Positions 1 to 6,934 of a stretch of DNA of 6,934 bases are shown one piece after another. The notes under the pieces were generated by a model. The model was given only the letters and a program-made list of their open reading frames with translations. It made no database searches and was not told the origin of the DNA. The position numbers and the translations under genes were made by a program. The DNA is from a virus (lineage: Duplodnaviria; Heunggongvirae; Uroviricota; Caudoviricetes): IMG/VR virus record IMGVR_UViG_2681813271_000015. One strand, written 5' to 3'. Each line of letters opens with the position of its first letter. Position 1 is the first letter of the stretch.

Positions 1-981
1 TTATAACGTCACTCCGCCTTTTAGTGGATTCAGAGCGACGGCATTTTGCAGATAGTCAGGCGCAAGGTGCGCATAGGCCATCGTCTGCTGAATGCTCGCA
101 TGTCCCAGAATCTGTTGCAGTGCGATTATATTGCCCCCATTCATCATGAAATGGCTTGCGAATGTATGCCGCAGGATGTGGGTTGCCTGATTGGGTGGTA
201 TATCAGGTTTCACTCTGCGTAAAATCCCGCAAAATTTCTCATAATCAACTTTGAATAATTTGGCGCTGGCCTCCTCTTTAACTTTTTTCTCCAGTTCCTC
301 AGAAATCGGCACGGTTCGCTTTTTACCGTTTTTGGTTTTCAGGAAGGTAACCCTGCAATTTGTAATCTGTGCTGGTTTTAGCGTGGCAACTTCCGTCCAT
401 CTTCCTCCAGTGCTCAGACATAAAAGCGCGACAAGTAAGTCATCACCAGCCAAAACATTTAACAGTTTTTCGATTTCTGCTTTTTCCAGGAACGTCATTT
501 CAGGGTTGGCCTCCGCCAGTGGCGGCAGTCCGTGAATTGGGTGTTGCCCGGAAAATTCATCCAATTGAATTAATTTTGTGAACATGCCGGATAATCTGTA
601 CATGTCACGGTTTATCGTTGCGGCACTGATACCATCACGTAGTCGCATGGAACGATAATCCATCAAAGCCCTTTTGCTCATCCTGCTCACTGGTATATCA
701 CCTATGCCGCTGATGGTTTTGAGTAGATGATTAAACTCTTTTGTTCCATGCTCGTGGTTTTGCCCGTGATATTTCCACCAGATGTCCAGCAACTCACTCA
801 AAGTCCGGCGGTCTGCTCGCTGGCCTCCCCATTCTTTCTGACTGGCATTGGCGATTGTGTATCGCTCAAATGCTAGTGCTTCAGCTTTTCTTTCGAATTT
901 CCTGCGGATGCGTTTTCCGTCGCGACCGCGAGGTCTAATGTCCACTTCATAGCGACCATCATCGAGCTTCTTAATTGCCAT
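1..981 (-). CDS. int: P2-family tyrosine integrase (site-specific recombinase)
   Basis: Minus-strand ORF ending at TAA (window positions 3-1). Translation carries tyrosine-recombinase catalytic signatures near the C-terminus (..ATHILRHTFASHF.. and ..QQTMAYAHL..) and the N-terminus MAIKKLDDGRYEVDIRP resembles P2 Int as I recall it. Start chosen at ATG 981 (MAIKKL...) because a GGAGGG Shine-Dalgarno lies about 9 nt upstream on the minus strand; the ORF-track start at 1011 has no SD. The stop is at the window edge, so the att site is off-window. Confidence 0.9.
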   Translation of the reverse strand: MAIKKLDDGRYEVDIRPRGRDGKRIRRKFERKAEALAFERYTIANASQKEWGGQRADRRTLSELLDIWWKYHGQNHEHGTKEFNHLLKTISGIGDIPVSRMSKRALMDYRSMRLRDGISAATINRDMYRLSGMFTKLIQLDEFSGQHPIHGLPPLAEANPEMTFLEKAEIEKLLNVLAGDDLLVALLCLSTGGRWTEVATLKPAQITNCRVTFLKTKNGKKRTVPISEELEKKVKEEASAKLFKVDYEKFCGILRRVKPDIPPNQATHILRHTFASHFMMNGGNIIALQQILGHASIQQTMAYAHLAPDYLQNAVALNPLKGGVTL

Positions 982-1040
982 AAGAAAGCCCTCCGGCGCT
1001 GTATTCACCATCTTGGTAGCAAATGGTGAAAATGTAATCT

Positions 1041-1403
1041 TTATATAGNNNNNNNNNNNNNNNNNNNNNNNNNNNNNNNNNNNNNNNNNNNNNNNNNNNN
1101 NNNNNNNNNNNNNNNNNNNNNNNNNNNNNNNNNNNNNNNNNNNNNNNNNNNNNNNNNNNNNNNNNNNNNNNNNNNNNNNNNNNNNNNNNNNNNNNNNNNN
1201 NNNNNNNNNNNNNNNNNNNNNNNNNNNNNNNNNNNNNNNNNNNNNNNNNNNNNNNNNNNNNNNNNNNNNNNNNNNNNNNNNNNNNNNNNNNNNNNNNNNN
1301 NNNNNNNNNNNNNNNNNNNNNNNNNNNNNNNNNNTTCACAGAATTTTGATTGGCTTAGCCCTTCAGCCTCACGCAAGGCCTTAATCTTTTCGCTTAATTT
1401 CAT
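1041..1403 (-). CDS. C: C-type immunity repressor (HTH), 3' end hidden in N-masked gap
   Basis: Only 1335-1403 is readable: ATG at 1403, giving MKLSEKIKALREAEGLSQSKFCE, an N-terminus typical of a small HTH repressor that P2 C also has. Position (between int and cox, divergent from cox) matches the P2 C gene. P2 C is about 99 aa from memory, so the true stop is probably near 1100 inside the gap; the 1041 end is only the ORF-track maximum and is not trustworthy. Confidence 0.65.
   Translation of the reverse strand: MKLSEKIKALREAEGLSQSKFCEXXXXXXXXXXXXXXXXXXXXXXXXXXXXXXXXXXXXXXXXXXXXXXXXXXXXXXXXXXXXXXXXXXXXXXXXXXXXXXXXXXXXXXXXXXXXXXXXI
1049..1334. other. Masked/unknown sequence (run of 286 N)
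   Basis: Continuous N run seen directly in the sequence; it covers the 3' part of the repressor gene and the repressor-int junction. Confidence 1.
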
Positions 1404-1524
1404 TTGACATGGTGCCTATATAGGGACTAAATTCCCTCAAAACTGGAACCTATATAGGTTCCATTGATTTGAGAATAAACCAGCGTCTAAACGGTTTTGA
1501 GTGGTTTAGAAAGGGCTGGATCCT
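1404..1524. promoter_or_regulatory. Early control region: candidate Pe promoter, candidate operator palindromes, Pc expected on the opposite strand
   Basis: Consensus -35 TTGACA at 1404-1409, with TAAATT at 1428-1433 (18-bp spacer) as a candidate -10 reading toward cox. Two direct copies of the self-complementary 10-mer CCTATATAGG at 1415-1424 and 1449-1458; the second extends to a perfect 18-bp palindrome GGAACCTATATAGGTTCC (1445-1462). The copies flank the candidate -10, which is the P2-type operator layout. Exact Pc elements on the minus strand could not be pinned down. Confidence 0.5.
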
Positions 1525-1812
1525 ATGAGGGTACCATATATGGACGCTGAAAATTATGTGATTCAGTATCCGCTTGATGCGGTTCATGTGGATAAATTTG
1601 CTGATTTATTAGGGAAGCCAAAGACAGCCGTCAGTGAAATGGTGAAGGCAAATAAATTACCAATTATTGAATTGCGTGATCCTTGCAAACCGAAGGCTCG
1701 TGCCGGTGAAAAATGGGTTTTCATTCCTGAGTTTAATCGCGCTGTACGTGAGGCGTTTTATAACCGACCGGTTGAACAGCGTGATGCATGGCTTTTGTGG
1801 ATGGGGTTGTGA
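1525..1812 (+). CDS. cox: Cox-like excisionase / early-to-lysogenic switch protein
   Basis: First gene of the rightward operon, about 95 aa; C-terminal ...RDAWLLWMGL resembles the P2 Cox C-terminus as I recall it. AAGGG about 9 nt upstream of ATG 1525; alternative start ATG 1540 (MDAENY...) has GAGGG upstream. Stop TGA at 1810-1812. Confidence 0.8.
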   Translation: MRVPYMDAENYVIQYPLDAVHVDKFADLLGKPKTAVSEMVKANKLPIIELRDPCKPKARAGEKWVFIPEFNRAVREAFYNRPVEQRDAWLLWMGL

Positions 1813-1814
1813 TT

Positions 1815-1985
1815 ATGAATGAGCCGCGTTGTATTGCTCAGTTATTGCGTAACGAAAGCCCTAGGGCGATTGACTTCACCATCACCCACGGGAAGGGTCG
1901 CAAGGGAATCATTATCCGCACCAAAAAACAGAGTCCGTTAAAAAAGGCTCTGACCTTTCTGAAAAGCCGGAGGGTCTGGAAATGA
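1815..1985 (+). CDS. Small hypothetical early protein (position of P2 orf78)
   Basis: ORF in the early operon; ATG 1815 (MNEPRC...) is preceded by a G-rich stretch (GGGG 1803-1806). The ORF track starts it at 1788, which has no SD. Its stop TGA (1983-1985) overlaps the next ATG (1982-1984), indicating translational coupling. Basic, Lys/Arg-rich protein. Confidence 0.55.
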   Translation: MNEPRCIAQLLRNESPRAIDFTITHGKGRKGIIIRTKKQSPLKKALTFLKSRRVWK

Positions 1986-2482
1986 CAGTGATGACGCTCA
2001 ATCTCGTCGAAAAACAGCCAGCAGCTATGCGCCGGATAATTGGTAAGCATCTTGCCGTCCCTCGTTGGCAGGATACATGTGATTATTATAATCAGATGAT
2101 GGAGCGCGAACGGCTAACAGTTTGCTTTCATGCGCAGTTAAAACAACGTCACGCAACGATGCGTTTTGAAGAAATGAACGACGTCGAACGTGAACGGCTG
2201 GTTTGTGCAATTGATGAATTGCGTGGGGCATTCTCAAAACGCCGTCAGGTTGGCGCAAGTGAGTATGCATATATTAGTTTTTTAACAGTCAGTCAGCGTC
2301 GTACTTTATTTATGCATGCCGGATTGACTGAAAAAGAATTCAATCAGCCATACTGGCGAATTAATGAAGAGTCATGTTACTGGCGTGATGCTTTATTCCG
2401 TGCATTACGTGAACTATTCAGTCTGTTTGAGTATGCACCGACAATTCTGACGTCGGTAAAACCAGAGCAATATTTGCATTAA
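1982..2482 (+). CDS. B: Replication protein B (P2 B-like, helicase-loading function in P2)
   Basis: 166-aa ORF, the same length as P2 B, in the same position between cox/orf78 and the small orfs preceding A. The sequence looks highly similar to P2 B from memory; a database search would confirm. Stop TAA at 2480-2482. Confidence 0.85.
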   Translation: MTVMTLNLVEKQPAAMRRIIGKHLAVPRWQDTCDYYNQMMERERLTVCFHAQLKQRHATMRFEEMNDVERERLVCAIDELRGAFSKRRQVGASEYAYISFLTVSQRRTLFMHAGLTEKEFNQPYWRINEESCYWRDALFRALRELFSLFEYAPTILTSVKPEQYLH

Positions 2483-2503
2483 ATAATTAACCAGAGTTTT
2501 TAA

Positions 2504-2533
2504 CGCACTTAATTGTGCGGGGCTTCTTTTTGC
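2504..2533 (+). terminator. Weak hairpin plus T-tract between B and the next gene (possible partial terminator/attenuator)
   Basis: CGCAC (2504-2508), loop TTAATT, GTGCG (2515-2519), followed by GGGCTTCTTTTTG. The stem is only 5 bp, so at best a leaky terminator. Confidence 0.2.
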
Positions 2534-2545
2534 CTGGAGAAAGTC

Positions 2546-2725
2546 ATGCATACAGTTTCTGAAAATCAGTGCGGTAAATACGCATTACTGCTGCAACAGG
2601 CCAGAACCGAAGCACAGGCCGACGCTGCGACGCGCTTTTCTTCTCATCTTGACGCCATGATTCGCCATATCACAAAGGCGGAGTTATCCCGCGTGGAGAT
2701 AGTCGAGCTGCTCAGTCAGGAGTAG
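2546..2725 (+). CDS. Small hypothetical early protein (position of P2 orf80)
   Basis: ATG 2546 (MHTVSENQ...) preceded by GGAGA at 2536-2540 with 5-nt spacing; the ORF-track start at 2513 lacks an SD. 59 aa, stop at 2725. Confidence 0.6.
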
Positions 2726-2769
2726 GAAAAATTTCACAATATCGGATTGTCTCGCGGGGAGGTGCTTTG

Positions 2770-3069
2770 ATGTCCTGTTCTCATTCAGTTGTATTACTGA
2801 ATAACGCCTTAAAAATCGCCGTTATGAAAAATGGCGACTTGTCTCTTATTCAACTTTGTCTTGATAAAGAAAAACGCGACATCACTGAATCTGTTATCGC
2901 GATTTATCAGAATGAATTAAACCTCCTGTCTGATGTGGTCAATTTACTTGTTAAACGCGCTGTATTCCACAAGCAAATTTCCTCAGTGGATGAACTGACA
3001 AAATTAACGACAGAACTTGCCAGTTATTGCGCTGATGTATCCAGGAAACTTAACGATAAAAGGAGCTGA
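2770..3069 (+). CDS. Hypothetical early protein (position of P2 orf81)
   Basis: ATG 2770 preceded by GGGGAGG (2756-2762); the ORF-track start at 2767 is a TTG one codon upstream. 99 aa; stop TGA at 3067-3069 lies 2 nt before the next start. Confidence 0.65.
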   Translation: MSCSHSVVLLNNALKIAVMKNGDLSLIQLCLDKEKRDITESVIAIYQNELNLLSDVVNLLVKRAVFHKQISSVDELTKLTTELASYCADVSRKLNDKRS

Positions 3070-3071
3070 TA

Positions 3072-3296
3072 ATGCCGGACAACATAGATTTTATTCAGGA
3101 ACAACAGGCTGAATTACTGGAGCGCCAGATTAACGCGGCAAGGGTAAAACATTGCGGTGCTTCTGCGCTGGTTTGCGAAGAGTGTGACGCGCCAATTCCT
3201 GCTGCCCGTCGTGCGGCTTATCCGTCAGCCACGCGTTGTGTTTCCTGTCAGTCAGTCTTTGAAGCAAAAAACAAACATTACCGGAGAACGGCATGA
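3072..3296 (+). CDS. TraR/DksA-family C4 zinc-finger protein (position of P2 orf82)
   Basis: Strong SD AAAGGAG at 3058-3064. The 74-aa product has four cysteines arranged CxxC-(17)-CxxC (CEECDAPIPAARRAAYPSATRCVSC), the C4 zinc-finger signature of the TraR/DksA family. Confidence 0.8.
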   Translation: MPDNIDFIQEQQAELLERQINAARVKHCGASALVCEECDAPIPAARRAAYPSATRCVSCQSVFEAKNKHYRRTA

Positions 3297-3568
3297 GTAT
3301 TCGTATTGAAATTGGCGAACGTTATGTCGTTACCAGTGACAGCTTCCAGTTTATTCTCCACGAGAAAAAGAGAGCGGAAAGCGGTAAAAACGCCGGTCAG
3401 GAATGGCTGGCGGTGGTTGGTTATTACCCGAAATTAAGCCAGCTCGTTTCCGGCCTGATGCATCACGATATTCTGACCGGAAGCGCAAAGTCTTTTGCTG
3501 ATTTAAACGCGCAGGTTGAGCAACTCAGCAAGCGTTGTTCAGAGGCTTTTGGCTCATATGGCCGTTAA
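3293..3568 (+). CDS. Hypothetical early protein (position of P2 orf83)
   Basis: ATG 3293-3295 overlaps the preceding stop TGA 3294-3296 (ATGA coupling); GGAG at 3282-3285. 91 aa; stop TAA at 3566-3568 overlaps the A start. Confidence 0.7.
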   Translation: MSIRIEIGERYVVTSDSFQFILHEKKRAESGKNAGQEWLAVVGYYPKLSQLVSGLMHHDILTGSAKSFADLNAQVEQLSKRCSEAFGSYGR

Positions 3569-5855
3569 AGCCTCCGGGCGTTTTGTCCCTCCGTCAGCAT
3601 TTGCTGCAGGCACCGGTAAGGCGTTTACCGGTGCTTATGCATGGAACGCGCCACGCGAGGCTGTCGGGCGCGAAAGACCCCTTACACGTGACGAGATGCG
3701 TCAGGTGCAAGGTGTTTTATCCACGATTAACCGCCTGCCTTACTTTTTGCGCTCGCTGTTTACGTCACGCTATGACTACATCCGGCGCAATAAAAGCCCG
3801 GTGCACGGGTTTTATTTCCTCACATCCACTTTTCAGCGTCGTTTATGGCCGCGCATTGAGCGTGTGAATCAGCGCCATGAAATGAACACCGACGCGTCGA
3901 TGCTGTTTCTGGCTGAGCGTGACCACTATGCGCGCCTGCCGGGAATGAATGACAAGGAGCTGAAAAAGTTTGCCGCCCGTATCTCATCGCAGCTTTTCAT
4001 GATGTATGAGGAACTCAGCGATGCCTGGGTGGATGCGCATGGCGAAAAAGAATCGCTGTTTACGGATGAGGCGCAGGCTCACCTCTATGGTCATGTTGCT
4101 GGCGCTGCACGTGCTTTCAATATTTCCCCTCTCTACTGGAAAAAATACCGTAAAGGACAGATGACCACGAGGCAGGCATATTCTGCCATTGCCCGTCTGT
4201 TTAACGATGAGTGGTGGATTAGTCAGCTTAAAGGCCAGCGTATGCGCTGGCATGAGGCGTTACTGATTGCTGTCGGGGAGGTCAATAAAGACCGTTCTCC
4301 TTATGCCAGTAAACATGCCATTCGTGATGTGCGTGCACGCCGCCAGGCAAATCTGGAATTTCTTAAATCGTGTGATCTCGAAAACAGGGAAACAGGCGAG
4401 CGCATCGACCTTATCAGTAAGGTGATGGGCAGTATTTCTAATCCTGAAATTCGCCGGATGGAGCTGATGAACACCATTGCCGGTATTGAGCGTTACGCCG
4501 CCGCAGAAGGTGATGTGGGGATGTTTATCACGCTGACCGCGCCGTCAAAGTATCACCCGACACGTCAGGTTGGAAAAGGCGAAAGTAAAACCGTCCAGCT
4601 AAATCACGGCTGGAACGATGAGGCATTTAATCCAAAGGATGCGCAGCGTTATCTCTGCCGTATCTGGAGCCTGATGCGCACGGCATTCAAGGATAATGAT
4701 TTACAGGTCTACGGTTTGCGAGTCGTCGAGCCACACCACGACGGAACGCCGCACTGGCATATGATGCTTTTTTGTAATCCACGCCAGCGTAACCAGATTA
4801 TCGAAATCATGCGTCGCTACGCGCTCAAAGAGGATGGCGACGAAAGAGGAGCTGCGCGAAACCGTTTTCAGGCAAAACATCTTAATCGGGGCGGTGCTGC
4901 GGGGTATATCGCGAAATACATCTCAAAAAATATCGACGGCTATGCACTGGATGGGCAGCTCGATAACGATAGCGGCAGACCGCTGAAAGATACTGCCGCG
5001 GCTGTTACCGCATGGGCGTCAACGTGGCGCATTCCGCAATTTAAAACGGTTGGCCTGCCGACAATGGGGGCTTACCGTGAACTACGCAAATTGCCTCGCG
5101 GCGTCAGCATTGCTGATGAGTTTGACGAGCGCGTCGAGGCTGCACGCGCCGCCGCAGACAGTGGTGATTTTGCGCTGTATATCAGCGCGCAGGGTGGGGC
5201 AAATGTCCCGCGCGATTGTCAGACTGTCAGGGTCGCCCGTAGTCCGTCGGATGAAGTTAACGAGTACGAGGAAGAAGTCGAGAGAGTGGTCGGCATTTAC
5301 GCGCCGCATCTCGGCGCGCGTCATATTCATATCACCAGAACGACGGACTGGCGCATTGTTCCGAAAGTGCCGGTCGTTGAGCCTTTGACTTTAAAAAGCG
5401 GCATCGCCGCGCCTCGGAGTCCTGTCAATAACTGTGGAAAGCTCACTGGTGGTGATACTTCGTTACCGGCTCCCACACCTTCTGAGCACGCCGCAGCAGT
5501 GCTTAATCTGGTAGATGACGGTGTTATCGAATGGAATGACCCGGAGGTTGTGAGGGCGCTCAGAGGTGCATTAAAACACGGACTGAGAAGACCAAACCGT
5601 CAGCAAAGAAACGGAAGCCCGTTAAAACCGCATGAAATAGCGCCATCGGCCAGACTGACCCGGTCGGAACGAATGCAAATTACCCGTATCCGCGTTGACC
5701 TTGCTCAGAACGGTATCAGGCCGCAGCGATGGGAGCTTGAGGTGCTGGCGCGTGGGGCAACCGTAAATTATGACGGGAAAAAATTCACTTACCCGCTCGC
5801 TGATGAGTGGTCGGGATTCTCAACAGTATTAGAGTCAAACTCAGTGAAGCGTTAA
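3558..5855 (+). CDS. A: Rolling-circle replication initiator protein A (HUH endonuclease, P2 A-like)
   Basis: Long ORF with an HUH metal-binding motif (TPHWHMMLF; codons CAC-TGG-CAT at 4752-4760) and two tyrosines spaced four residues apart (GYIAKYISKNIDGY; Tyr codons at 4905-4907 and 4917-4919), the paired-tyrosine arrangement known for P2 A and phiX174 gpA. Start set at ATG 3558 (MAVKASGRF..., 765 aa), close to the about 761 aa I recall for P2 A; the ORF track starts at 3516 (779 aa). Stop TAA at 5853-5855. Confidence 0.92.
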   Translation: MAVKASGRFVPPSAFAAGTGKAFTGAYAWNAPREAVGRERPLTRDEMRQVQGVLSTINRLPYFLRSLFTSRYDYIRRNKSPVHGFYFLTSTFQRRLWPRIERVNQRHEMNTDASMLFLAERDHYARLPGMNDKELKKFAARISSQLFMMYEELSDAWVDAHGEKESLFTDEAQAHLYGHVAGAARAFNISPLYWKKYRKGQMTTRQAYSAIARLFNDEWWISQLKGQRMRWHEALLIAVGEVNKDRSPYASKHAIRDVRARRQANLEFLKSCDLENRETGERIDLISKVMGSISNPEIRRMELMNTIAGIERYAAAEGDVGMFITLTAPSKYHPTRQVGKGESKTVQLNHGWNDEAFNPKDAQRYLCRIWSLMRTAFKDNDLQVYGLRVVEPHHDGTPHWHMMLFCNPRQRNQIIEIMRRYALKEDGDERGAARNRFQAKHLNRGGAAGYIAKYISKNIDGYALDGQLDNDSGRPLKDTAAAVTAWASTWRIPQFKTVGLPTMGAYRELRKLPRGVSIADEFDERVEAARAAADSGDFALYISAQGGANVPRDCQTVRVARSPSDEVNEYEEEVERVVGIYAPHLGARHIHITRTTDWRIVPKVPVVEPLTLKSGIAAPRSPVNNCGKLTGGDTSLPAPTPSEHAAAVLNLVDDGVIEWNDPEVVRALRGALKHGLRRPNRQQRNGSPLKPHEIAPSARLTRSERMQITRIRVDLAQNGIRPQRWELEVLARGATVNYDGKKFTYPLADEWSGFSTVLESNSVKR

Positions 5856-5941
5856 CTCAATAAATATGAGTTTATAAGTTAGGCCTCGAGATTTTGTAGA
5901 AAGGGATGTATACTGAGTATCGTATAGATTTGGAGTGAGTG
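5856..5941 (+). promoter_or_regulatory. AT-rich intergenic region upstream of the methyltransferase gene; candidate promoter and RBS
   Basis: 86-bp AT-rich spacer with several -10-like hexamers (TATACT 5909-5914, TATAGA 5923-5928) and a -35-like TTGTAG (5894-5899), but no pair at canonical 16-18 bp spacing. SD GGAG at 5932-5935 lies 6 nt before ATG 5942. Confidence 0.3.
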
Positions 5942-6934
5942 ATGACTGTAAAGGTGATAGACCTTTTTTGTGGTGCTGGCGGATTAACTCATGGTTTGCA
6001 GCTTGCGGGGCTTGATGTCGTTGCAGGCATTGACCTTGAGGGGGAATGTAGGTTTCCCTATGAAAGAAACAATAAATCTAAGTTTATTGAGCAAGATATC
6101 GCTAAAGTAACAAAAGAGGAACTGCTGAGGCTTTATGGTGATGCGTCTGTAAAAGTATTGGCAGGATGCGCACCTTGCCAACCTTTTTCAAAATATACTC
6201 AAGGAAAAGATAAGGCTGATGATAAAAAATGGCCTCTTCTTTATGAGTTCGAACGTTTAATTCGCGAAGTATCTCCAGAAATCGTAACAATGGAGAACGT
6301 TCCTGATGTAACTAAACATAAAGTTTATAATGATTTTTATAATTCATTGTTAAAGTTGGGCTATTATGTTTGGGCGTCTAAGATTGATTGTGTCGAATAT
6401 GGAATCCCACAAAACCGTTCCCGTCATGTATTGTTGGCCTCAAAATTGGGGGCGATTGAGTTAGTAAAACGTGACGATGTTATTTTGAAAACAGTTAGAG
6501 ATGCAATAGGAAATCTTCCTCCATTAGAAGATGGCCAAACAGATCCAAATGATATATTACATAGAGCCAGTAAATTAAATCCGATTAATAAAAAAAGAAT
6601 TATACACTCTGTTCCTGGTGGTACATGGAAGGACTGGCCGAAAGAGTTGGTTGCCGCTTGTCATATGAAATCCAGCGGTAAAGGGTATGCTAGTGTATAT
6701 GGGCGCATGTCTTGGGATAAGCCAAGTCCAACAATTACAACTCTTTGTTATGGTTTCGGGAATGGGCGTTTTGGACATCCANNNNNNNNNNNNNNNNNNN
6801 NNNNNNNNGGACATCCAGAACAGCATAGAGCGATTTCTCTTAGAGAGGCTGCTTTATTGCAAACTTTCCCGATGGATTATATTTTTGTAGAAGACAAAAA
6901 CAAGTTTGTTATAAGAAGTATTGGGAAAATGATA
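5942..6934 (+). CDS. DNA (cytosine-5)-methyltransferase, 3'-partial (continues beyond the window); not in supplied ORF track
   Basis: Read directly from the frame starting at 5942: MTVKVIDLFCGAGGLTHG... gives motif I FxGxGG (5966-5983), motif IV PCQ with catalytic Cys codon TGC at 6176-6178, motif VI ENV (6293-6301), motif VIII QNRSR (6410-6424), a ...RMSWDKPSPTITT block, and after the N gap motif X ...RAISLREAALLQTFPMDYIF (6827-6883). No in-frame stop to the window end (331 codons). The frame is preserved across the 27-N gap only if the gap length is real. Confidence 0.88.
   Translation, partial: MTVKVIDLFCGAGGLTHGLQLAGLDVVAGIDLEGECRFPYERNNKSKFIEQDIAKVTKEELLRLYGDASVKVLAGCAPCQPFSKYTQGKDKADDKKWPLLYEFERLIREVSPEIVTMENVPDVTKHKVYNDFYNSLLKLGYYVWASKIDCVEYGIPQNRSRHVLLASKLGAIELVKRDDVILKTVRDAIGNLPPLEDGQTDPNDILHRASKLNPINKKRIIHSVPGGTWKDWPKELVAACHMKSSGKGYASVYGRMSWDKPSPTITTLCYGFGNGRFGHPXXXXXXXXXGHPEQHRAISLREAALLQTFPMDYIFVEDKNKFVIRSIGKMI
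6782..6808. other. Masked/unknown sequence (27 N) inside the methyltransferase gene
   Basis: N run seen directly; flanked on both sides by the identical 9-mer GGACATCCA (6773-6781 and 6809-6817). Confidence 1.

Follow-up and report, generated by a model that had tools for sequence, protein, structure and literature searches.

The DNA stretch analyzed here, a piece of 6,934 nucleotides (nt) from the IMG/VR record IMGVR_UViG_2681813271_000015 (in the following "the window"), represents, judged by gene order and homologies, the early (left) region of a P2-like (Peduovirus) prophage. Near its right end the replication gene A is followed by the beginning of a gene coding for a C5 cytosine DNA methyltransferase (methylase), and the GC content drops. 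This compositional break very probably is the left border of the P2-family hotspot of accessory genes, which is located between A and the cos site/portal gene Q and which in this prophage harbours an AT-rich module of approximately 3.1 kb. The module comprises three genes, encoding the methylase, a HEPN protein and a protein with a DUF262 domain.

The DNA downstream of A is considered cargo because homology, which is independent of base composition, reveals a loss of the match to the phage backbone. Phage P2 (locus L002) aligns with positions 1814-5835 of the window without gaps and at 96.6% identity, and no alignment is found beyond 5835. Nucleotide identity with P2 is kept up to 5828 (...TCTCAACAGTA) and lost thereafter, the BLAST alignment being carried on to 5835 by a chance GAGT. 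A prophage of E. coli GN04592 (L003) harbours A, an orf91-like gene, a small open reading frame (ORF) and, behind them, the same methylase module; the match of the window to L003 reaches 5835 and restarts at 5843, a 730-bp block of L003 being skipped. The loss of P2 identity after 5828 and the resumption of L003 homology at 5843 therefore place the junction between backbone and cargo within 5829-5842, which according to these alignments is inside A and 14-27 nt before the last base of its stop codon. The first-pass annotation, made from the letters of the window, had put the junction within a few bases of 5856, and this position has to be moved upstream. The alignment to P2-like prophages that it had proposed as a check was run: backbone homology ends at 5828/5835, and among 60 sampled records no match lacking the methylase extends past 5835.

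Given a junction at 5829-5842, the last eight codons of A (LESNSVKR) together with the stop codon belong with the cargo. A ends with STVMEWT in P2, where orf91 overlaps the stop codon, and with STVLESNSVKR in the window. Since the window lacks orf91, translational coupling of A to a gene downstream is absent. The features that meet at the junction are:

3558-5828, plus strand: backbone part of the replication gene A, coding for the rolling-circle replication endonuclease (Pfam Phage_GPA, E = 2e-123; P2 alignment)
5829-5855, plus strand: cargo-linked 3' tail of A, LESNSVKR and stop (MEWT and stop in P2), delimited by the loss of P2 identity, the gap relative to L003 and the comparison of ten prophages
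5850-5855, plus strand: last codon of the A tail (cgt, R) and stop codon

The alignment of ten prophages with eight cargo types contains eight different short A tails. Every cargo type meets A at its own point, and these points are scattered over the last 2-15 codons (approximately 45 nt). As far as this alignment reaches, each cargo supplies its own short A tail. The possibility that the junction is an artefact of assembly in a scaffolded draft with N gaps can practically be dismissed. Two N runs do occur in the window, one of them a scaffold gap with a duplicated 9-mer, yet both are more than 900 nt away from the junction, which recurs base for base in eight complete E. coli chromosomes; several IMG/VR contigs show the same gene order as well.

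Other prophages use the same slot for other genes. The 3' part of A was matched in 1683 of 5426 complete E. coli genomes, only nine of which carry the methylase alongside. Sixty records were sampled from all parts of the ranking, and in those that lack the methylase the match never extended past 5835. Six other prophages contain six other gene sets at the same position: a reverse transcriptase, an orf91-like gene with unknown genes, a different methylase with a ParB-N protein, a DUF7380 protein, a ComEC-family protein and a pair of Panacea-domain proteins. In P2 itself the order is A, orf91, tin, old and cos. Among the ten prophages compared, which comprise eight cargo types, the flanks are conserved and the content is replaced, and in all ten the content is markedly more AT-rich than the backbone; in the six other prophages the GC content is 0.54-0.55 in the last 1 kb of A and 0.31-0.46 in the next 1 kb. 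On this comparison the island has the hallmarks of a hotspot, i.e., the position between A and cos/Q, conserved flanks with replaceable content, and AT-richness. Its position, extent and composition, and its standing as one of many alternative cargos at the A-Q slot, are established at the level of sequence.

The whole island can be seen in the best full-length match to the window, a prophage adjoining cpxP in E. coli CFSAN064036 (L001), with 97-98% identity throughout. The gene order in L001 is int, C, cox, B and further early genes, A, methylase (plus strand), HEPN (minus), DUF262 (minus) and portal Q (minus). The island spans approximately 12837-15975 (3.1 kb) between A and cos/portal Q; homology to P2 ends at 12836 and restarts at 15976, within the cosR region. 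Over 26 kb of L001, no GC steps are larger than those at approximately 12764-12816 and 15943-15997, the two ends of the island. The GC content of the methylase (0.386), HEPN (0.31) and DUF262 (0.357) genes compares with 0.534 for A and 0.531 for Q, and the P2 genes tin and old have values of 0.329 and 0.348, respectively. A search of the plasmid collection did not recover the island.

The methylase gene occupies the right end of the window and contains a defect of the assembly:

5942-6934, plus strand: C5 cytosine DNA methyltransferase gene, 5' 97%, running off the window (340 amino acids at full length in L001; DNA 98% identical to L001)
6782-6817: 36 extra nt within the methylase gene, an assembly artefact made up of 27 N and, behind them, a repeated GGACATCCA

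At the site of the artefact L001 reads an uninterrupted TTTTGGACATCCAGAACAGC, and the query exceeds each of the eight full-length E. coli matches by 36 nt. Since complete genomes read through 6782-6817, the N run and the repeated GGACATCCA are an artefact of a scaffold gap. The 36 nt leave the reading frame intact.

The catalytic motifs of all three cargo proteins are intact and conserved. The full-length L001 homologue of the methylase matches Pfam DNA_methylase (PF00145) with E = 4.4e-58 over profile positions 2-323 of 324. In the window motifs I (DLFCGAGG), IV (APCQPFS), VI (ENV) and VIII (QNRSR) can be read, and motifs I, IV, VI, VIII, IX and X (GNAVP) are all present in the alignment. By profile and motifs the protein is a full-length member of the C5 cytosine DNA methyltransferase family. 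Its nearest solved structures (M.HaeIII, M.HhaI, DNMT1) match in the catalytic core alone and are uninformative on specificity. The HEPN protein, encoded on the opposite strand, belongs to the MAE_28990 family (E = 3e-29) and also matches Pfam RiboL-PSP-HEPN. The protein encoded next to it on the same strand contains a DUF262/GmrSD_N (ParB-like) domain (E = 5e-26) and among the PADLOC models matches NsnA best and over its full length (E = 2e-54), followed by PD-T4-2_A (E = 5e-35). The HEPN motif RNDL(S/A)H and the DUF262 motif DG(S/A)QR are kept across four alleles. Domain searches yielded no classical restriction-endonuclease domain; the DUF262 protein has a weak REase_II match (E = 3e-5).

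The cargo has a history of its own. A comparison of L001 with L003 gives DNA identities of 89-91% for the three cargo genes and of 96.5-98.4% for A, Q and the terminase gene; moreover, the module in L003 is located behind an orf91-like block, unlike in the window. Among 33 IMG/VR loci fetched with the DUF262 protein, approximately 25 contain all three genes in the same arrangement. In a group of about 12 of these contigs the cargo proteins are 78-88% (mostly around 86%) identical to those of L001, at only 30-36% identity for A and 60-63% for Q, and one such contig, which was examined further, shares 96.8% identity in its portal/terminase DNA with a Klebsiella Fels-2-like phage. These comparisons demonstrate that the evolutionary history of the cargo is independent of the backbone. 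The view of the first-pass annotation that the methylase region is acquired cargo is thereby upheld on several grounds: the stop of P2 homology, the occurrence in 9 of 1683 genomes, the six other cargos and the identities of 86% versus 30-36%.

The module extends beyond the enterobacterial prophages. The isolated coliphage P24B2 carries a third allele. An Oscillospiraceae genome encodes methylase, DUF262 and HEPN beside mecA and dpaA in a co-directional operon with abutting or overlapping ORFs, at 59% (methylase), 44% (DUF262) and 30% (HEPN) identity to L001. Further non-enterobacterial relatives of the methylase are found in Bacteroidota, Pseudobutyrivibrio and Moraxella phages. In enterobacterial phages the GC content of the cargo is 0.33-0.39, compared to 0.48-0.55 for the remaining DNA; in a low-GC contig (L038) the values are 0.341 and 0.350, and in two high-GC contigs 0.566 and 0.64. 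Such values fit a module that would be native to low-GC genomes and drifts toward the composition of its host. In the P24B2 phage (L016 3501-4548) the methylase appears as two annotated pieces and as two tblastn pieces and is therefore probably frameshifted, and the DUF262 and HEPN genes look intact. This phage would be informative on the question whether the methylase is needed to tolerate DUF262/HEPN.

The base composition itself changes markedly at the end of A. The GC content of A (3516-5855) is 0.532 (0.60, 0.46 and 0.54 at codon positions 1, 2 and 3), and that of 5856-6934 is 0.385 (2x2 chi-square, p = 2.5e-15). The intergenic stretch 5856-5942 (87 nt, the spacer proper being the 86 nt of 5856-5941) has a value of 0.345, and the methylase ORF, starting with the ATG at 5942, yields 0.51, 0.39 and 0.29 at the three codon positions. 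Synonymous codon usage differs between A and the methylase (G-test, G = 155, df 41, p = 3.6e-15), and a control comparison of the first and second halves of A gives p = 0.14. Codons ending in A or T make up 71% of the methylase versus 46% of A, and the commonest methylase codons (AAA, GAT, TAT, ATT and GTA) are much as the first-pass annotation had described them. The largest GC step in the window falls at 5763-5851 and amounts to 0.157 and 0.158 with half-windows of 300 and 500 nt, respectively; the corresponding upstream maxima are 0.137 and 0.106, so that no background step at this scale equals the break.

The exact position claimed for the break does not hold at this resolution. Composition alone places it within 5753-5853 (2-lnL support), and in 50-nt bins over 5706-5905 the GC content declines from 0.66 to 0.46, 0.42 and 0.34. 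Since the fall is spread over approximately 150 nt, composition cannot resolve a break "exactly" at the stop codon. Similarly, the early operon, described as GC-balanced to GC-rich, is not uniformly GC-rich, the GC content of the region 1340-3515 being 0.447. The conserved backbone ORF at 2767-3069 (orf81-like, DUF5405) has a value of 0.376, and at the 200-nt scale a GC step of 0.175 at 2780, inside the conserved backbone, equals the break. In view of this AT-rich ORF and the step at 2780, low GC by itself is no marker of cargo. These points weigh against the interpretation of the break as a cargo border as far as it draws on composition, which alone is weak evidence for cargo. The window maximum of the GC skew, +0.41, is found over 5801-6100, a segment that includes the junction as well as the initial 150 nt of the methylase gene.

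The AT-rich backbone genes also bear on an extremely improbable alternative, according to which AT-richness is intrinsic (due to amino-acid content, expression or selection for silencing) and the methylase is an ancestral P2 backbone gene lost by most relatives. The genes cox and B and the ORF 2767-3069 are indeed AT-rich as well, with A/T at the third position in around 0.61-0.62 of the codons, and in codon usage neither cox (p = 0.33) nor the ORF 2767-3069 (p = 0.06) differs significantly from the methylase, in comparisons of low power. Yet, A and the methylase differ most at synonymous third positions (GC3 of 0.54 versus 0.29). Loss by most relatives is moreover at odds with the presence of the methylase in merely 9 of the 1683 genomes that carry A, with at least eight unrelated cargos in the same slot, with a module that is 86% identical where the A proteins are 30-36% identical and with the comparison of L001 and L003, where the module is 10% and the flanks are 2-4% diverged. 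The divergence of the cargo is incongruent with that of A and Q.

The pattern of junctions suggests a route by which the hotspot might be filled. Its cargo would have entered first by illegitimate recombination that replaces the dispensable end of A; such an entry is proposed because flanking repeats and a recombinase gene are lacking and because the junctions are scattered. Spread among P2-like phages would then proceed by homologous recombination within A and within cos/Q, the conserved sequences to either side, and the low GC content would reflect an origin in a low-GC gene pool. That this mechanism is read from patterns counts against the overall interpretation, as does the failure to find a recent donor: the closest methylases outside the Enterobacteriaceae are 52-59% identical. 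The P2 "nick site at ori" (annotated at L002 5917) corresponds by ungapped alignment to position ~5416 of the window. From there to the cargo junction downstream the distance is approximately 420 nt, and on its other side the hotspot adjoins cos; as sites of DNA ends, the nick site and cos might favour recombination.

It is very unlikely that the module is instead a discrete mobile element, which a site-specific recombinase or transposase inserts at a fixed site after A. The exchange of cargo with unrelated elements that lack flanking homology is discussed as unexplained (PMC13586616), and the homology of P2, L003 and the locus L011 to the window ends at the same base. However, the island borders contain neither direct nor inverted repeats other than short chance matches, and the island encodes no integrase or transposase. 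The different cargos join A at different nucleotides across approximately 45 nt, and the left end of the module itself depends on the context, being at ~5843 in the comparison with L003 and at ~5880 in the comparison with Klebsiella alleles.

Regarding function, as predicted at the level of domains, the three genes would provide a restriction-modification-like defence: methylation would mark the DNA of the cell itself, the DUF262 protein would sense unmarked DNA, and the HEPN protein would be the nuclease effector. We consider the chances about even that the three genes constitute such a system. The linkage of the three genes is conserved across phyla, which argues for it. Operons of a methylase, a ParB-nuclease and a MAE_28990-HEPN protein have been predicted (Anantharaman et al. 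2013, PMC3710099). The module resembles them in having three adjacent components with intact HEPN Rx4-6H and DUF262 DGQQR-type motifs; unlike in the co-directional Oscillospiraceae version, the methylase of the P2 family is inverted and has its own leader.

A real, albeit clearly less probable, alternative is that two unrelated cargos are neighbours, i.e., a stand-alone phage anti-restriction methylase beside an independent, PD-T4-2-like DUF262-HEPN pair. Several observations point in this direction and weigh against a functional coupling. The methylase is oriented in the opposite direction, has its own leader and is transcribed separately from DUF262-HEPN, with a terminator between the methylase and the pair. 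The validated PD-T4-2 system (DUF262 and HEPN) guards against T4 without a methylase (PMC9519451). In the phage PhiR44_1 a related, 55%-identical methylase is partnered by paraMORC3 instead, and another variant of the hotspot combines an unrelated C5 methylase with a ParB-N protein. The HEPN protein matched no PADLOC model at E <= 0.01, PD-T4-2_B included, a point against the overall interpretation. The coupling of the three genes in one system is favoured, in contrast, by their linkage in every P2-family allele down to approximately 54% identity, by the abutting or overlapping ORFs of the co-directional operon on the Oscillospiraceae chromosome and by the conserved operon linkage of methylase, ParB and MAE_28990 genes (PMC3710099).

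Two loci from the comparison contain layouts of a similar kind. L012 5536-8588 (E. coli 2013C-4538) codes for the unrelated C5 methylase (34% identical), an unknown protein and the ParB-N protein; L017 3504-6552 (PhiR44_1) carries the 55%-identical methylase with paraMORC3. In both, as in the module of L001, the methylase reads away from A and the partners are convergent. A layout of "methylase plus swappable effector" recurs, by this comparison of gene orders, at the A-Q site.

Two known defence systems share components with the module. PD-T4-2, an anti-T4 system of E. coli ECOR65 (Vassallo et al. 2022), likewise consists of a DUF262 and HEPN pair. The DUF262 protein matches PD-T4-2_A, and the HEPN protein matches RiboL-PSP-HEPN, the family given for PD-T4-2 (PMC10952713). 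Yet, the HEPN protein is not detectably PD-T4-2_B and alike in kind only, NsnA beats PD-T4-2_A for the DUF262 protein, and PD-T4-2 has no methylase. The second system, Menshen (NsnABC), shares the NsnA match of the DUF262 protein (E = 2e-54), and Menshen loci often adjoin methylase genes; for DUF262 a part in the sensing of unmodified DNA has been suggested (PMC12065111). Unlike Menshen, the module lacks the NsnB ATPase and the NsnC effector and has the HEPN protein and the methylase as neighbours.

The methylase appears to be equipped for its own expression. The region upstream of the start codon contains the following elements:

5856-5879, plus strand: variable linker separating the stop codon of A from the conserved leader, common only to the close alleles in L001 and L003
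5880-5941, plus strand: conserved methylase leader; homology to Klebsiella-type alleles begins at approximately 5880-5885
5885-5890: CTCGAG palindrome, overlapping a weak -35-like TCGAGA at 5886-5891
5909-5914: -10-like hexamer TATACT, 17 nt after TCGAGA
5932-5935: ribosome-binding site GGAG
5942, plus strand: methylase ATG

A promoter scan scores TCGAGA, 17 nt and TATACT as a weak sigma-70-type promoter. CTCGAG is unchanged in all ten aligned alleles (methylase identity down to approximately 69%), and the -10 hexamer differs in one of the ten, at one position (TATAAT, L039). The spacing between CTCGAG and TATACT is constant in the ten alleles, and the DNA upstream of CTCGAG is unalignable. 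From this conservation we infer a promoter in the methylase leader. The methylase would be transcribed from it in the lysogen, and after induction also by read-through from the early operon. A scan of the window predicted no terminator between A and the methylase, no Rfam match was obtained anywhere in the window at E <= 1, and the intergenic RNA folds no better than shuffled sequences (z = -0.5). At L001 13972-13988, between the convergent methylase and HEPN genes, a GC-rich hairpin is flanked by T-runs on both sides, a predicted bidirectional terminator between the methylase and the HEPN/DUF262 pair.

The conservation of CTCGAG exceeds what a -35 hexamer needs. The palindrome could be a regulatory site or the target of the methylase itself. 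It is missing from the more distant L038 and Oscillospiraceae alleles. It occurs once in the window (1.1 expected) and 0-4 times in the loci (1.7-6.6 expected), numbers too small to tell whether the site is depleted as a restriction target would be. According to a rather improbable reading, the triad would be a single self/non-self system in which the methylase regulates itself via CTCGAG, and, as a separate matter, the A tail would be a "landing strip" that defines the hotspot. CTCGAG may then be the target or binding site of the methylase, such that the methylation state of incoming or newly replicated DNA sets expression, and the DUF262 protein may sense unmethylated DNA and switch the HEPN nuclease on. 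The cargo-specific replacement of the last 2-15 codons of A may indicate that the tail is tolerated as such a landing strip.

The hotspot and its methylase/HEPN/DUF262 cargo are already known, and the A-to-Q (tin/old) border has been published. A survey of the A-Q hotspot of P2-like phages counted 1,650 arrangements in 18,150 loci, with an average of 3.2 kb (Rousset et al. 2022, PMC9122126), and its Table S5A lists the methylase/HEPN/DUF262 arrangement with L001 protein accessions. The listed arrangement is the same system at the same locus as in the window, and nothing substantive is different. The publication gives no indication that this arrangement was cloned or tested, and in the literature no published test of the methylase/DUF262/HEPN triad was found. 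Four new defence systems were reported at exactly the A-Q position (Vassallo et al. 2022, PMC9519451), a hotspot-annotation tool takes the A-Q hotspot as a positive control (bioRxiv 10.1101/2024.10.15.618418), and according to a 2026 study defences swap rapidly among P2-like phages. Calendar and colleagues named the AT-richness of the P2 conversion genes in the title of a chapter published in 1998 (cited in PMC5694545).

The island shares with the tin/old region of P2 the position between A and cos/Q, the fall in GC content to approximately 31-39%, the conserved flanks and a similar size (3.2 versus 3.1 kb). The two differ in content, which is orf91, tin and old in P2 and methylase, HEPN and DUF262 here, in the absence of orf91 here, and in the end of A, which has a different tail of eight codons. 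Odegrip et al. 2006 is reportedly among the sources for the P2 region. Phage "morons", a term that goes back to Hendrix and colleagues, are additional AT-rich genes that bring a promoter and a terminator of their own and lie between conserved phage genes. Like morons, the module is AT-rich and dispensable, possesses a promoter-like leader and a terminator and is located between essential genes. In contrast to a clean intergenic placement, however, it replaces the last codons of the essential gene upstream.

Three minor points are absent from the literature compared: the cargo-specific A tails, the leader with CTCGAG plus TATACT, and the contrast between E. coli and Klebsiella phages with a cargo identity of approximately 86% at an A identity of approximately 32%. 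The break, at the edge of a phage defence hotspot that ranks among the best studied, serves mainly as a positive control for the detection of cargo in raw sequence by composition. Its practical value, which consists in a junction inside A, A tails owned by the cargo and a conserved methylase leader, is small. In addition, a candidate three-gene methylase/DUF262/HEPN module that seems to move between P2-family phages of E. coli and Klebsiella is flagged, a matter of ordinary defence-system work rather than a new direction.

The remainder of the window begins with the integrase gene:

1-1011, minus strand: integrase

The integrase is followed by the repressor gene C, cox, B, four small early genes, the replication gene A and the start of the methylase. 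The longest ORF of A is 3516-5855, and the RefSeq "replication endonuclease" of L001 is the equivalent of 3558-5855. A run of 286 N at 1049-1334 masks most of the gene for the immunity repressor C, of which the first 23 codons are legible, and the spacer between int and C. The int-C-cox region (1-1813) matches L001 well in its legible parts. Similarity of this region to P2 is weak (70-80% in parts of int, none in cox), and therefore the integrase/immunity module differs from that of P2 and is followed, starting at 1814, by a P2-type early operon.

Two of the prophages compared show peculiarities outside the island. E. coli GN04592 carries a gene of the PAPS-reductase family (L003 3549-4556) between an orf83-like gene and A, which is missing from the window, P2 and L001 and suggests that the early operon contains a second, small site of variation. 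In E. coli SCEC020022 (L014 473-5338) A is interrupted by the IS21-family element ISEc12, and this prophage is therefore presumably defective.

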